A DNA stretch of 62,384 nucleotides, the filler included, from Sphacelaria rigidula (Eukaryota): NCBI GenBank assembly GCA_964200075.2. It is 9 parts of 9 records of this genome, joined end to end, with 100 filler letters (N's around TTAATTAATTAA, not from the genome) between each part and the next. Parts side by side here need not be neighbours in the genome. Positions count along the whole stretch, not along the records: positions 41,659 to 48,500 come from CAXNAA020017811.1; 8 more parts are not named here. The stretch is one strand, 5' to 3'. A model generated the notes under the pieces. That model did no database searches. It was not told where the DNA came from and saw only the letters and a program-made list of their open reading frames with translations. Shown here one piece after another: positions 40,941 to 48,500 of the stretch. The translations under genes and the position numbers were made by a program. The stretch's first letter is position 1. Each line of letters begins with the position of its first letter.

Positions 40941-41694
40941 GTAAGAGTTCTTGATTGAAGCACACGAGTGTTACTGGACTGAAAACTGGACTAAAATTGC
41001 CAGGGATGTGCACGGATTAACCCTTTGGGAACCCTCCCCTCCCGTCCCCGGGCCAGACGCCTCATTATGAGAAGCCCTGACAAAGAAGAAAATATGGAAA
41101 CAGAAAAGACTGACGGCAACCATTTTCACTGTGGAGGACCAAAGAAGATTCCAGACGCACGTACCAAAAATGAAATCCCGGAATGGTCCAGTTGGGTTTG
41201 TCCAATGATAATGATATCACGCGACGGGCGAAGTGTGTCCAATTGTGTGCATCGACGAAACTCTCGCAAAACGGTACAAACTCCTGTACATGTGATTTTC
41301 GTCAGTAAAATCTGTGAAAAACCTCAATTCGAGGTCGGTGCACCAATACGTCACATTAGTATACTTGAAATTAGAGTCGCGCACTATTATACTTGAAATT
41401 AGAGTATTGCACCGTTTCGGCGGGCTGCATCATCAAGAGTCGGCAAGCTTAGGAACCCACACTATACGGCCGGCGACAGTGATATGGCGGAGCACGTGAA
41501 AATCCCGTCGCCCCATGTGGAAGCGCTAAAGAGCGACCCATATGCAATTCACGTTCAGNNNNNNNNNNNNNNNNNNNNNNNNNNNNNNNNNNNNNNNNNN
41601 NNTTAATTAATTAANNNNNNNNNNNNNNNNNNNNNNNNNNNNNNNNNNNNNNNNNNNNAAGCAAAAAATGAGAACGCCCCCCCCCCCCCTATCG

Positions 41695-42700
41695 GAGGAT
41701 GACTCATCTGACAATCAGGACGAGGATGGAGCAGCGTCATGGCATGAGCCACCAGATCCTTCGCTGCCGCCCACGCCTGCAGCCTTCCTTCCATCCACGA
41801 TGCAGCCTTCTTCGGAAACCCCATATTTGGACTGGACCACTCCACCTCTAAATTCTGTAACACCAACCCGAGCGCCAAAAGAGCCGCCATGCACAATGTC
41901 AACAAACTCGGCTTCACTGGATCGTACCGCCGCGGCTTTGTCTTCACCGTGGACGCCCCAGGGTCTGGCTGAACACGCATGGGCTCCACGCGCGCAGGGG
42001 GATCACCCCGCAGCGCACGACGAAACGCGTTGACGCGGCAATGCAATTTGCCGCGCAGGCGCTCCGCTTTTGAGACGCTGAGGTTTTTCGCCCCAGCATC
42101 TGTCACGCTCTCCTCCAGCGCGACTTTCCGAGCGGACTCCTCTTCCGCGGGATCAATGAATATCTCCGGGCCGCGCTCTACCACGCGTTCCACCGCCGCA
42201 TCCCGCTCCTCGGTCACCTGCCCTGCATCCTCCTGAACAGCATCCACCGACAAGCTCACGCGACGACTGCCCAAAACGGCGGGCGTCTCCAAGCGTGGAC
42301 CAGGCGGAGTCATCCGCGTCTTCATGGAGTCCCACAACCGCCGAGCGTTGATTCAATATCCTGAAGCATCGGCAACCCCAGAAGAATAACGCCATCCGAC
42401 CCTGGCATGATCGCAAACGAGATCGGGGGCAACTGCGCCGGCCCCCAGGAACTCATCAAAGTCAGCTGCAGCGGAACAGTGCGCTCTGTGACGTAAACAT
42501 GCTGACCCGACGCGGTAACGGCCTGCCGCGTCCCGAGCGACAACGGAGTGCGCAGCAGCACACCCGGGAGAAGACGCTCCAACATCTCTACAATCTGTAC
42601 CGACAGACTCACATGACCCGTCCAGTGGGCGCCAGAACCTCATATAGCCTGTACCGCAATGGCTCCCCGCGCCCGGGGATTCGGAAGATATATCTCTGCA
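41695..42700 (-). pseudogene. pol: Pol remnant: inactivated aspartic protease plus RT N-terminus fused to the RT/RNase H connection
   Basis: VQAI*GSGA (degenerate LDSGA active site) ... VILLGLPML; then FRRALRGDPPARVEPMRV..KPRRY..WSSP (Gypsy RT start) directly followed by AWAAAKDLVAHAMTLLHP. Confidence 0.8.
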
Positions 42701-42944
42701 GGAATATATTTGCCTTGACACTCAACCGGCACCTGCTCCGCTGACTGATTGTTCGTGATCCCCACTTGGCGTCACGGCTGCGCGTGCGGCGGAGGCAGAG
42801 ACGCCCCCGCTGGGGTCACCGGCACCGCCGGCGGGTACGAAGCCCCGCCCGCAGAACCAAATTGCAGCGGTACTCCGGCCGACGAGCAGCGGATCCAAAT
42901 TTCAGCTGAAATCCGGCCGGCTCCGCAGTGGGCTTCTCGCCTTG

Positions 42945-44024
42945 CTATACTGCCCGCGGCGCCAGCATTGAGCCCGACACTAGAGAGGTCGGTCCGACCT
43001 GCACCGCCCGTTGTGGAGCAGCAGTCCCTGCGGCTGAGCCGGACCCAGAACCGGACCCTTGCTGACGCCGCTGCCCCTGCTGCTGCTGTTGGGAACTCGA
43101 CTGTACACCTCCACCGCTGGAGGATCCACCTCCGCCACCACCCCGATTACCTTTCCTTTCTTTGTGACTGCGAGGGCGCGCGGCACTCGTCTGCCCAGAC
43201 TCCCCCTCAGTAGGCGTTGGGCACTTCCGTGCGATGTGGCCTACCTGGCGACACTGATAGCAAGTAATATTGGCGGCGGCACTGCCTGCGGATTTTGATC
43301 CGCGGTTATGCGAGCTCGAAGACTGCGGCGGCAAAGTGGATGATTTTCCGAATACTTCGACCCGCCGCCATGCCTGAGTTTCAGACACCACGGTATCCAT
43401 AACTAAATACGGGTCTAACTTCCAGTTTGTTTCGTGCTGTAACTGCACAAGCACGGCCTGCTTAAATTCCGCCGGTGCCAGACCCTCCAGCACCGCTTTC
43501 GTGACCACCGCAGCGGGCCCTGGGCGGAATTTCCAATCGGAGGAACGATAAACCATCTCTACGTTGGGGTTTTCCGAAAAATATGTCTCCAACTTACCCA
43601 TGATGGACTCCACCCTATCACGCATGGTCCTCCCCTTGTAGTTCATTGCGACAGCCCTCGCCACGGCGGCGGACGCCTGTGTAAGCTCTACCTCCGCGCC
43701 TGCCGCATGCCCTGCGTGCTTCTTTATCGCTGCGGCCAACTGCAGCGGCGTTATGGTATGATTTTCATGCAGTCTTCTCGCGAAGACGCGTTGGAGGGGG
43801 GTAGGCACGAGTTGCGCCATGGAAACCATCTGATGCCTCACCGCACCCCCCGCATTCGTATATTCCACCCTCTTCTTGTATTCCACGTATTTCGTGTAGA
43901 ACGAACGAGAAGTACCCTCAGAATACATATTCCCGTGACTGGGCGGCCGCAACTCTTCCCTTAGAACGACTGGAGTGACAGTCGCCTCCGCTGGCTCTAT
44001 TGCCGGTACCTCGGTAGTCGACAT
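42945..44024 (-). CDS. gag: Retrotransposon Gag with CCHC zinc knuckle
   Basis: About 360-aa open frame from MSTTEVP, containing CYQCRQVGHIARKC (Cx2Cx4Hx4C) followed by a Gly/Ser/Gln-rich tail. Confidence 0.88.
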   Translation of the reverse strand: MSTTEVPAIEPAEATVTPVVLREELRPPSHGNMYSEGTSRSFYTKYVEYKKRVEYTNAGGAVRHQMVSMAQLVPTPLQRVFARRLHENHTITPLQLAAAIKKHAGHAAGAEVELTQASAAVARAVAMNYKGRTMRDRVESIMGKLETYFSENPNVEMVYRSSDWKFRPGPAAVVTKAVLEGLAPAEFKQAVLVQLQHETNWKLDPYLVMDTVVSETQAWRRVEVFGKSSTLPPQSSSSHNRGSKSAGSAAANITCYQCRQVGHIARKCPTPTEGESGQTSAARPRSHKERKGNRGGGGGGSSSGGGVQSSSQQQQQGQRRQQGSGSGSGSAAGTAAPQRAVQVGPTSLVSGSMLAPRAV

Positions 44025-44589
44025 GCTCGAGCGGAAAATCGAAGATTTCTGAACCTTCTCGAACTTAAAATTCATACCTGCCTTCTCCGCCGCTCCACAC
44101 AGCCCTGGGGTTCCTATTAACACCCGCTGCACGCAGCTCCAGCAAGTCTCCAGTCTGGACCAACCACGGGCCAGCCACCTTTGCAGCTACCTCAGCTTGA
44201 AACCTCCTCACGCGCCCGTGAAGCTATATGCTCGAAGCTCTCACAAGCTGTCCAGATTCCTACCCGCTAAAACATTTCCAGCAGTCTCCTGACGATAGCA
44301 CTCCTAGCACTCCTAGCACTCCTAGCACAAATATCGATATTGTGACGCCAGCAGGTTGCTAGTATTGCAGCGTCTAAATGGTGTTGAGGGACTCCCCAGT
44401 TTCACTGGCCTCAAGGTCTCAGTTGTCAGCCTTCACAGCACCTTATCATTCCCGGAGTAGACAGCTGCAGCTCCGTACCGTCAGGTCTGGGCTACACAGC
44501 AAGGCTCATCATCCACAGGATACCCTTGTCCCCTGGTCATCATCCAGGATCCATTATATACTCAACGTGACGGCGTGATCGCCACACTA

Positions 44590-47500
44590 CCGTAGGTTGC
44601 ATACGATACCTCACTTACATAAGATGCGACACCCCTGTAAAAAATATACACAATACCACACCCGTGTGCTATCTTTTTGGGTGCCGAAATGATCACTTTT
44701 TTATCACACGGTGACTTAAGATATCACACCCCTAGGGTTTAGCCGCATATCATCCACGGATCCCCTGATTTATCACACGGGTGTGATCGCCCCTGAGCAA
44801 GCACACAAACAAGCGAACACAACCTGCGGGCCACGATGGTGGAGACCGGCAATATCATGAAGAGAGATGCAGCATCTAACCCTGCTGAAAGTACCGCGCC
44901 TCACACTGCGGTGGGCCAGACTCCAGCAGCTACTTCACGCTCCATAGCGTCGTTTTTTCAACCCGCTGCACAGGAAAGTGTGCCCCCTGCTGAGAGTGCC
45001 CCAACGACCGTGCATGACACCACATGCACTGGTGAGGCTTGCACATCAGAATCCCCAGCAGCCAATCCGGTAGTACCCGCTGCACCTGCCTGCGCACGGG
45101 CTGCAGAGGCTCGCACAGGAAAACCTACTGCTGCTGAGACTCCTACAGCATCCGCTGCGCCTGCCACCGCACGTGCTGCTGAAATCCCTACACCACCGCC
45201 CACAACGGGGAAGCCGGCCACACCTCCCGCCACCGAATCTACAAGCGCGTCCACAGTTGAGAACTACGCAGCAGCACTCCATTGCGCTGACCCCTCATGC
45301 AGCAGGAAGGCCTTGTGGGCTGAACCAGAAAAGGCGAACCCGGAGTTTTGCGGCGTGCACGCGAACTCTGGTGACATCTACATTCAATCAAGGTGTGCGG
45401 AGTGTCTCTTCTCAGCCGCGTTTCGATGTACTGTATGTCTACCTGTGTGCATATGTGTTTTTGAGTTCACATGGCCTTGGCTGACCGAAATCAATTTCAT
45501 GTGTGATTTTCACATGCTGCTGTCTGGCTCGCATTTTCGCTCTTGTGAACGGTACCAAAGCGACACACTTGGTTACAAGACAAGACTACCGGTATATTAG
45601 CTTGTTCTGTGAGTAAGTGCGTTTTGTGATCTCTCTTTTTGACCTCACCAAAAACAGTGAGAAAACGTTGCAACCACTTGCGCCAGTACCACCTTCAGGC
45701 TTTGCCCCGCTTTGTGCCAGATAATCAGGAGGTGTCGTTAGCTCCCTTATCAGTCTGTATACCTTATTTTCTGGTAATCGTTCTGTGAGCTTTTTGAGTC
45801 CTGTTCGATAATCAACAACTTTCAGCATATCTTGTCTCGTGGTCGTTCAAGCTCGCACATCCGTACACACACTGCACTCCATCGCGTGTGCGTTACTTTT
45901 GTCATTACATCGAAATGCACCCCTTTTTCAGGAGACCACGGCTGCCTCAAGCTTCGACCACAGCAACCCGAGCGGCGCCCGTCGGCGACACTATGTTCCC
46001 TGGAAAGTCTGAAGAGTGGACAGATGGTTTCGGTGGGTCTCTCGACGGCGTGCCGGCGGAGCGCAAAGGCAAGAGGAAAAAGAGCAGCTGGAGATGGAGC
46101 CGCCGGACTTTCCGATTGAGTTTGGTGGTGGCCAGAAGCGCAAGCGGTACGCGTTGGCTTTCAAAGTGAACGCGATTAAGTACGCGACCAAAAAAAGCCC
46201 AGGGGCGCTCGGGCCGGATGTAACTATCGGCATATCGTATGCTACGAGGGTGCTGGGGATTCCTGAGAAGGAGAAGGTCACACTTTCCGCCTGGATAAAG
46301 GACCACGAAAAGTATGAGAAGGAGCTGGAACGGGCGGACAAGCTCGGGGCCAAAGCCGGAGTATTAAGTCGTTGAACACCGGCAGGGTCAGGTCAAACGC
46401 GGAACGTCTGGATCAACGATCTTCGCACCGATGAGACCTCTGCCCGCGTCTCGACAAGGATGATCAAGAGGAAGGCTGTTTCAATCAACCCGCTTTTTTT
46501 CGGCCCGAGTCCTGCAGCGAATGACCTGGAGGGCAGCAAGAAGTACCGCAACAGCCAGACTTACTGGTGCAGGAGGTTGTTGAAGAAGTACCCTGTCATT
46601 GCGGGTGGTCACTCGACAAGGCCAGAAACTACCTTCCGGGTGGCCTGCGATTGCCATAAAGGCGGTGAAAGATTGGAGGGCGCTTCGTCACGGAGGCATC
46701 GACGGGGAAGAGCAGTGTACGGAGGGGGCAGCGAACAGTGGGCCGTCGGAACCACCTCTGCTGTTCTCGGACGAACAGTGTTACAACATGGACGAAACCC
46801 CCCCGTGGATGGAGCCAGCTGCCAAGTCAACGATGGCGGTAAGAACGATGGTGCTGTGTCATACACTTGTGCTCTTCTTTTCACTCTAGCCTCCTGTAAC
46901 TTGTTCTTACCTTCCATCGTTTCCCTTGTCACTGTATGCAGTGGGCATTGTGCCAACATCTTCCTGCCGTAGGACTCAGTGTCCAGGCAGTAGCTCTCGA
47001 TGGCATAGGTTTTGTGCTGTGGCTGCGCGCGAAATCCTTCGACGGCCGCCTGCATCACGACTGTTTTGCGATATCAACACGTTCCCTTGCACATAAAGAG
47101 GTATCATGGCCGATCGACGAATGCATTTTTGTCTTCGCGTTTGCTTTCCATTTTCTCCCCGTTTCTTCTACTTGTTGCAGCACACCGGTGATAAGGAGGT
47201 CGGCATCAAAACCGGTGGCAAGGAAAGGTTGCGCATTACTGCCGTTCTTGAAGCGAACATGAATGTTAAGAAGCTACGGGGGATGCTCATCTTCAAGGGC
47301 AAGGCCACGGCGCCGGGGAAAGCTCCGGCTGCCAACAGCATCGAGCGAGAATTCAAGGTGTACAAGGACAAGAAGGGGAAGGTATACCCGCGGGGTCTTG
47401 TATACGCCGTGGAAGACAAGGCGTGGCACACACAGCGGGTGTTCAAGGACGTTTGGTTGCCCCAAGTGTGGAACCGCCGCCCGGGGCGGGAGGGGGCCGT

Positions 47501-48500
47501 AGGCAACTACCTTCATCAGCCGGACACGCTGCTAGCGTGGGACGACTACACCGTGCACAAGATGGACCTGTGCAAGGTTGCGATGGAAAAGTCAAACACG
47601 ACGCTGTTTCTCATCCCCGGAGGTCTGACGCCCAAGATGCAGCCTTGCGATGGGCTCATCAACAAGCTTTTCAAGTTCAACATGTCCAAGCAGTACGATG
47701 ACTACGTGGCCTCCAACGACGCTGTGCGCAACGACCGCGGTTACCCGGACCCCCCGTCAAGGGGGTTGCTCGCGCAGTGGGTGAAAAAATCGTGGGATGA
47801 GGTGGACACTGAGAGCACCCGTTCGAGCTGGAAGAAGGCTGGTCTGCTTCTTCCCTTCGACGGATCTGAAGACGAGGCGTGGGCCAACATGGAGCTCAAC
47901 GCTGATGCTCAGGGAAGGCCGTTGACAAAAGACGGCGACGCGGCGGCTGCCGGCGGGGAGGAGGCCGGTTCAGCGGACGGGGATAAGCCACCGTTGAAGA
48001 TGGCCGACTTGTTGGAGGTGTTGGAAATTGATGACGATGACAGCACGGGTAGGGGTGCGGACGACAGCAGTGACCTGGAGATTGAAGTCGTGGCAGACTT
48101 GTCGAAGCAAGAAGTTGTTTGCGTAGACTGAGTGTCTTTGTTCGGGTGCGTCCTTTCCACTGCATGTGATGTCAATTTGTGCACACTTTCGTCGAGTGAA
48201 CCACGGCTACGACTGCTGCGGTTTGAGCAACATAGAGCTCAACGGCGTATTTCATCCTTTCTTAAGTTGTTCGGACGGTCCGGTATTTTACCCTTTTTGT
48301 AGGAGGTTGCTAGCTTGGATTGAGCTGTAAGCTCGTCTGACAGGCTTCGTTCATCTTGTTGATTCGTTTATCATGCAATTTGACAAAGTGTTGTAGTTTT
48401 TTCATCGTGCGGATACGGTCGTGCAGTAAACAACAAATTGTGAGAATTGAGGTTTAACTTCGAGATGAGGCTCAAGCCTAAAACAGTGCTTTCCCCACAC
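44590..48500 (+). mobile_element. pogo-superfamily DNA transposon; candidate left end TA|CCGTA, right end not in the contig
   Basis: TA at 44588-89 followed by CCGTAGGTTGC. Subterminal TATCACAC repeats at 44702, 44722 and 44771. A transposase gene lies downstream. Confidence 0.65.
44836..48131 (+). pseudogene. Intron-containing pogo (DDE_1, DD35D) transposase with several frameshifts. Exons 44836-45392, 45932-46838, 47181-48131
   Basis: [17 protein letters not shown] (N-terminal HTH); [38 protein letters not shown] (CENP-B HTH); YNMDETP (D1); splice MA|HTGDKEVGIKTGGKERLRITAVL; LLAWDDYTVH (D2); IPGGLTPKMQPCD (D3, 35 residues after D2). Frameshifts near 46080, 46360-46410 and 46590. Confidence 0.93.

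Follow-up and report, generated by a model that had tools for sequence, protein, structure and literature searches.

Within a window of DNA from the Sphacelaria rigidula assembly, the interval from 44590 to 48418 (~3.83 kb) is probably a dead copy of a low-copy transposon of the pogo branch of Tc1/mariner (DDE_1), with a three-exon gene that carries an accessory EsV-1-7 module. The window, by which we mean the whole stretch analyzed (positions 1 to 62384; 62,384 nucleotides [nt]), is not one locus: nine pieces of ~6843 nt are joined by linkers of the form N44-TTAATTAATTAA-N44, and the element lies in the seventh (41659 to 48500), which has nothing in common with the other eight. Several of the nine pieces have short repeats in common, the seventh excepted.

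We propose a cut-and-paste DNA transposon in a brown-alga-like genome, set between two very high-copy repeats. Exon 1 (44836 to 45392) would supply a disordered N terminus with a conserved RSIASFF block and, at its end, one EsV-1-7 unit; it would be spliced at 45392/45932 onto an exon with a helix-turn-helix (HTH) region, and a third exon (47181 to 48131) would encode most of the catalytic domain. The EsV-1-7 unit would then be an accessory zinc-binding module that gives the transposase an added contact with DNA or protein, and such a contact could serve the choice of ends or targets or the tethering of the transposase to a host factor.

Exon 1 and its place in the element

Exon 1 runs for 557 nt from the ATG at 44836 (185 codons with 2 nt left over, phase 2), and residues 1 to 149 of its product are rich in alanine (25%), threonine (15%), and proline (14%). 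Residues 150 to 175 (nt 45283 to 45360) read CADPSCSRKALWAEPEKANPEFCGVH, an exact C-X4-C-X16-C-X2-H arrangement. This reportedly is the canonical EsV-1-7 spacing, and it turns up a single time when the whole window is read in six frames (124,764 codons). In a search against 24,736 Pfam models, residues 150 to 181 matched positions 1 to 32 of the 35 in EsV_1_7_cys (PF19114) with an E value of 9.9e-5 and 22.6 bits (E = 1.6e-4 when exon 1 was taken as a read-through open reading frame [ORF]), in line with the EsV-1-7 likeness proposed in an initial annotation of this DNA. The score lies under the gathering cut-off of 25 bits, but judged by its E value the match is still significant for one unit of 35 residues. 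No tandem repetition of the unit was found in exon 1, which holds one unit only. A language-model look-alike search (Atlas) with residues 140 to 186 returned EsV-1-7 clusters as its top three entries (scores, 0.83 to 0.84), which we treat as leads only, and a search of the same region against longer proteins yielded no candidate.

The left terminus begins at 44590, 246 nt ahead of the ATG, and the sequence from 44588 reads TA followed by CCGTAGGTTGCA. On a 644-kb contig (P0016), the middle of exon 1 leads into an inverted copy of 44711 to 44590: by tblastn, residues 108 to 129 of the P0016 product match the minus strand of that interval, and its end, GILCNLR followed by Y, corresponds to ...TGCAACCTACGG followed by TA. 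P0016 shows the junction of TA with CCGTAGGTTGCA at 44588 to be a true transposon end. On a second contig (P0015, 1645 nt), tblastn places exon 1 (44866 to 45198) straight against the DDE exon (47708 to 47840), and P0015 is a copy with an internal deletion that ties the two exons together.

Four sequencing runs of the same organism (X1, X3, X4, and X10), all of which behave as DNA, were compared with the window. Summed depth in X1 is 71 to 181 in all 20 bins from 44656 to 48335, compared to 29 to 40 for the single contigs listed, which indicates a family of roughly 3 to 5 copies at ≥90% identity, and depth changes sharply at ~44552 to 44559 and at 48429. Contigs ~93% identical to the window cover exon 1 in X1 (44830 to 45038, 15 differences), X3 (44822 to 45038, 12 differences), and X10 (44805 to 44953, 6 differences). 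The depth profile, these paralogous contigs, P0015, and P0016 together indicate that exon 1 is part of the element. The initial annotation had assigned exon 1 to the transposon family; the contrary arrangement, with the left terminal inverted repeat downstream of exon 1 or with other copies devoid of it, is not what we found.

Searching the whole library with exon 1 (phmmer) gave seven proteins, six of them genuine relatives that correspond to short ORFs on other contigs, at 45 to 60% identity. The seventh (P0011, a Cys-rich repeat protein of 1658 residues) is unrelated and was dropped. Three of the relatives (P0010, P0013, and P0016) come from deletion derivatives in which exon 1 gives way to terminal-repeat sequence, each at a different point; in two of these the break is within or just before the Cys motif. 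Further copies of the element were not found elsewhere in the window; viral contigs contained 0 relatives, and searches of metagenome contigs returned 0 relatives for the DDE alignment and 0 for exon 1. A 17-nt terminus pattern hit 1 viral and 12 prokaryote loci, which we regard as chance matches: similarity did not extend past 21 nt, and no DDE match accompanied them.

Between the left terminus and the ATG, 6 of the 16 window matches to TATCACAC[CG][CG], including 3 of the 4 exact ones, fall within 135 nt (44654 to 44788), and the cluster possibly represents subterminal transposase-binding sites. In other copies (X1 twice, X3 once), the 157 nt from 44611 to 44767 are replaced by 28 to 32 other letters; in the window copy this interval holds a block of TATCACAC motifs that has been expanded or inserted.

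The transposase exons and their lesions

When Ectocarpus proteins were aligned to the window by tblastn, four collinear blocks resulted: 45993 to 46082 in frame 3 (MFPG to GKRKK), ~46082 to 46591 in frame 2, 46593 to 46838 in frame 3 (the last part being the first catalytic Asp in NMDETP), and 47181 to 48128 in frame 3. These blocks define the exons, the frame breaks, and intron 2 (46839 to 47180), whose start is 46839 (GTAAGA) and not 46841. Exon 3 matches DDE_1 (PF03184) above its cut-off of 22 bits, over positions 3 to 177 of 177 (E = 1.9e-15, 57.3 bits). The Asp residues in NMDETP, WDDY, and PCDG, with 34 to 35 residues between the second and the third, are those that we take to be catalytic, following the pattern of the family. 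For HTH_Tnp_Tc5 the match in the broken window copy is weak (E = 0.19), and in the relatives P0004 (E = 4.6e-4) and P0045 (E = 2.3e-4) it falls just under the cut-off. Protein searches with exon 3 returned 8 longer relatives and 33 of similar length, with 31 to 82% identity over the aligned part; the best match to the whole exon is P0017 (76%), and the Ectocarpus proteins reach 71 to 73%. Those exon 3 relatives that have names belong to Ectocarpus sp. CCAP 1310/34; the others derive from ENA and Logan contigs.

According to the initial annotation, restoring one A near 46080 links exon 1 to the transposase. An A is indeed missing there: contigs of other copies have an extra A behind 46076 (3 in X1, 2 in X3, and 3 in X4), and with A6 the window reading resembles the GKRKKGQLELEPPDF of the Ectocarpus relatives. 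A single repair would not suffice, however, as the gene is also broken by a TGA at 46373 to 46375 and by a further deletion at ~46591, where the window reads K-K-Y-[CC]-L-S-L-R versus Y-R-F-S-V-R in relatives. This copy is unable to make the protein because of the two 1-nt deletions, the TGA, and a short degenerate stretch. Apart from these overlooked lesions, what the annotation had read in the sequence was sound. Other paralogue differences are in frame: other copies are without 3 nt at 47513 and without 6 nt near 46265 to 46268 (site 46265 to 46273). The features of the element are collected in Table 1.

Table 1. Coordinates of features in and at the borders of the transposon copy
Feature	Coordinates	Strand	Description
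TA before left terminus	44588..44589	.	Candidate target-site duplication; right counterpart 48419-48420 is TC
Left terminus	44590..44614	+	CCGTAGGTTGCATACGATACCTCAC; inverted copy in P0016
Subterminal TATCACAC[CG][CG] motif cluster	44654..44788	.	Partly palindromic; inverted pair I4
Exon 1	44836..45392	+	ATG, disordered Ala/Thr/Pro-rich N terminus, one EsV-1-7 motif, ends in phase 2; 6 related ORF products elsewhere
RSIASFF, PIP-box-like	44938..44958	+	Residues 35-41; best-conserved block of exon 1, followed by QP; alignment A1
Single EsV-1-7 Cys/His motif	45283..45378	+	Core 45283-45360; Pfam stretch, residues 150-181
Intron 1 (predicted)	45393..45931	+	GTGTGC...TTTTTCAG, 539 nt; phase and sites from sequence
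Exon 2	45932..46838	+	Linker, internal Met 45993 (MFPG...), putative HTH/CENPB-type region, first catalytic Asp (NMDETP); broken three times; tblastn with P0002, P0004, P0005, P0007
A5 run with 1-nt deletion (frameshift)	46077..46081	+	A6 in other copies
In-frame TGA	46373..46375	+	Inside a degenerate stretch, shorter than in relatives
Second 1-nt deletion (shift from frame 2 into frame 3)	46591..46592	+	From tblastn and sequence
Intron 2	46839..47180	+	GTAAGA...TTGCAG, 342 nt; homology to P0002 and P0004 ends at 46838 and resumes at 47181
Exon 3	47181..48131	+	Intact DDE_1 catalytic exon (WDDY ... PCDG), acidic tail, TGA stop; 58-76% identity to 41 relatives
Candidate right terminus TACGG	48414..48418	+	Inverted repeat beyond 5 nt poorly kept in this copy

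Both flanks of the element are very high-copy repeats with summed read depths of 10^4 to 10^5. On the left, a 413-codon open frame on the minus strand (42945 to 44186) contains a CCHC zinc knuckle (zf-CCHC, E = 1.7e-5) and belongs to a very high-copy Gag-like retroelement, which reaches ~44552 to 44559. On the right, a repeat starts sharply at 48429, extends to 48500, and has the top summed depth of the seventh piece (6.5 to 9.3 × 10^5 in X1, X3, and X4); many contigs have loose ends at 48429. The joints 44559 to 48429 (X1) and 44065 to 48429 (X4) were considered as empty sites and dropped, as two left sides there meet the same right repeat. A likelier source of both joints is the high-copy repeat beginning at 48429, and the joints served us only to bound the element.

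The predicted splice joint and competing readings

The predicted donor of intron 1 is ATCAAG/GTGTGC at 45392/45393, and the acceptor is TTTTTCAG followed by G, with the AG at 45930 to 45931 and exon 2 from 45932. This GT-AG pair is phase compatible, a strong pyrimidine tract precedes the acceptor, and the junction codon (AG/G, Arg) is followed by a reading that stays open through ...GKRKK to the A5 run. The ATG, the Ala/Pro/Thr-rich linker, the Cys/His motif, the donor at 45392, the acceptor at 45931, and the in-frame join are all present as first annotated. The in-frame residues that precede the internal Met in the window resemble those of Ectocarpus, where P0008 has AASGDV and P0004 has KSGNM directly ahead of MFPG. 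Two Ectocarpus models, P0003 and P0008, have an Ala/Pro/Thr-rich N-terminal extension joined to the transposase, and in P0003 the sequence KEITSFF occupies residues 35 to 41, the same residue numbers as RSIASFF in the window; the hhalign comparison gives a weak E value of 0.013. From these features we infer that exon 1 is spliced in frame to the HTH exon at 45392/45932.

Several observations weigh against a three-exon transposon with an EsV-1-7 module. The EsV_1_7_cys gathering score is not reached (22.6 versus 25 bits), PF19114 was matched in 0 of 8 and 0 of 19 related proteins, and the complete Cys/His motif was seen in no relative or other copy. Among the six exon 1 relatives, the motif is reached only by P0013 (CGEPSC) and P0010 (first Cys only), both of which then enter terminal sequence, and the Ectocarpus N-terminal extensions are without any Cys, at the motif position or elsewhere. 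Two Ectocarpus models, P0002 and P0005, have MFPG as their first residues, which makes a transposase without exon 1 conceivable. The 45392/45932 joint does not occur in X1, X3, X4, or X10; both introns are covered in these runs as in DNA, and the runs are therefore uninformative on splicing. Local alignment of the left end with the reverse complement of the right end returned no inverted repeat, and no 25-bp repeat. The two ends of this copy match only in CCGTA/TACGG (5 nt; the TACGG lies 10 nt inside the start of the right-flank repeat) and an ATCGT block, and the right flank has TC instead of TA.

Some of these points would suit an element of two separate units, in which exon 1 is a small ORF of its own (44836 to 45600, 254 residues, read through the donor) or a leader, and the transposase has Met 45993 as its first residue and is at no time joined to the EsV-1-7 motif. 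The exon 1 frame does remain open for 69 codons beyond the donor, to 45600, two relatives start at MFPG, the spliced joint was not seen in the four DNA-like runs, and PF19114 and DDE_1 occur together in no annotated relative. We nonetheless consider such an arrangement unlikely. The intron 1 sites are phase compatible and have a strong pyrimidine tract, residues ahead of Met 45993 are conserved in frame, the transposases of P0003 and P0008 carry an N-terminal extension, and the gene model described for the Ectocarpus element TcMar-2_Ec32 places an EsV-1-7 domain in the transposase itself (PMC12477816).

It is highly improbable that the Cys/His arrangement arose by chance within an exon of low complexity. 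Chance would be compatible with there being one unit only, with a score under the Pfam cut-off, and with a motif that is absent or truncated in every relative seen. The E value of 9.9e-5, however, was obtained against 24,736 Pfam models for a family named beforehand; the exact spacing occurs once in 124,764 codons, the top three Atlas entries are all EsV-1-7 clusters, P0013 retains the C-x4-C start at the same place, and the same domain is reported in the account of a like transposase (PMC12477816). That exon 1 is a fragment of an unrelated neighboring host gene outside the transposon is barely credible: the lack of clear 25-bp inverted repeats bracketing exon 1 in the window copy would allow it, but it is contradicted by a left terminus 246 nt upstream of the ATG whose status as an inverted end P0016 confirms, by P0015, which ties exon 1 to the DDE exon elsewhere, and by a multi-copy depth that is uniform between 44656 and 48335 and changes sharply at ~44552 to 44559 and at 48429. 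The main point of the initial annotation, a transposon family carrying an EsV-1-7-like module, is supported by these comparisons.

The PIP-box-like block and relatives of the element

The best-conserved part of exon 1 is RSIASFF, and the pattern [RK][SE]I[AT]SFF followed by x-P is kept in 5 of the 5 relatives covering the block, with P0015 reading RSKTSFF. The pogo transposase of Drosophila is said to bind PCNA. The PIP-box is defined as Qxx[LIMV]xx[FY][FY], position 1 being the most promiscuous, in the part of the source that sets out the motif (PMC6881253). Compared with this definition, S-R-S-I-A-S-F-F fits at positions 4, 7, and 8; position 1 is S or P, with no Gln. In sequence the block is similar to the boxes at the N termini of MSH6 and UNG2 as presented there (PMC6881253), minus the Gln. 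As a side lead, RSIASFF may be a PIP-box-like motif and a putative PCNA contact.

Few domain families of brown algae have expanded as much, or are understood as little, as EsV-1-7; brown algae share it with their giant viruses, and IMMEDIATE UPRIGHT links it to development. The relevant parts of two sources describe the family as large in brown algae and found in giant viruses (10.1101/2024.02.19.579948, PMC7457493), and the Phaeoexplorer preprint, in its section on the family, counts 2018 EsV-1-7 members in 31 genomes, a huge transposon orthogroup having been set aside in the collection (10.1101/2024.02.19.579948). A transposase with one EsV-1-7 unit hints at DNA or chromatin binding by the unit, and it offers a simple test system for EsV-1-7, in which transposases that have the unit could be set beside transposases that lack it for end binding or excision. 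The roles first suggested, the element as a vehicle that spreads the motif and the motif as a chromatin-targeting add-on, are speculation. Extending them, one might picture exon 1 as a two-part host interface, with a PIP-box-like tether to the replication clamp and an EsV-1-7 zinc unit for chromatin or DNA targets, whose transposon copies scattered single EsV-1-7 units into brown-algal genes or exchanged them with integrating phaeoviruses; we regard this as a long shot.

The design of an EsV-1-7/transposase fusion is already in print for Ectocarpus. As characterized in the passages on this family (Genome Biol 2025, PMC12477816), TcMar-2_Ec32 is an autonomous Mariner-Tc1 family of Ectocarpus, 4378 bp long. 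Its termini are CCGTA-TACGG, TA is duplicated, the gene is spliced, the transposase has an EsV-1-7 domain at its N terminus, and the miniature inverted-repeat transposable elements derived from it have longer inverted ends. To this the window adds a second genome, evidence for the 5′ exon moving together with the element, and a conserved PIP-like motif, which goes unmentioned in those passages (PMC12477816).

Measured against that description, the window element shares the termini CCGTA (44590 to 44594) and TACGG (48414 to 48418), the TA on the left, an EsV-1-7 motif at the predicted N terminus, a length of ~4 kb, and short nonautonomous derivatives with longer inverted ends. It probably also shares the spliced-gene design, for which intron 2 is backed by homology and intron 1 is predicted only. 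It differs in being 3.83 kb instead of 4378 bp, in not preserving 25-bp inverted repeats, and in its TC on the right. The likeness is one to a published description, and the best Ectocarpus matches to the DDE exon are 71 to 73% identical; on this comparison, the window element may be the counterpart of TcMar-2_Ec32 in another brown alga. With pogo/Tigger elements (Tc1/mariner; DDE_1 plus HTH_Tnp_Tc5), it has in common the DDE_1 domain, the Asp spacing of 34 to 35, a putative CENPB/Tc5-type helix-turn-helix region, and a candidate TA target. Unlike them, it has two introns and, ahead of the DNA-binding region, an additional 5′ exon of ~205 codons with an EsV-1-7 unit. In Cys/His spacing and profile match, its module resembles the EsV-1-7 proteins (PF19114) found in brown algae, such as IMMEDIATE UPRIGHT, and in phaeoviruses, whereas it is a single unit and not a tandem array, is predicted to be joined to a transposase, and scores below the Pfam cut-off.

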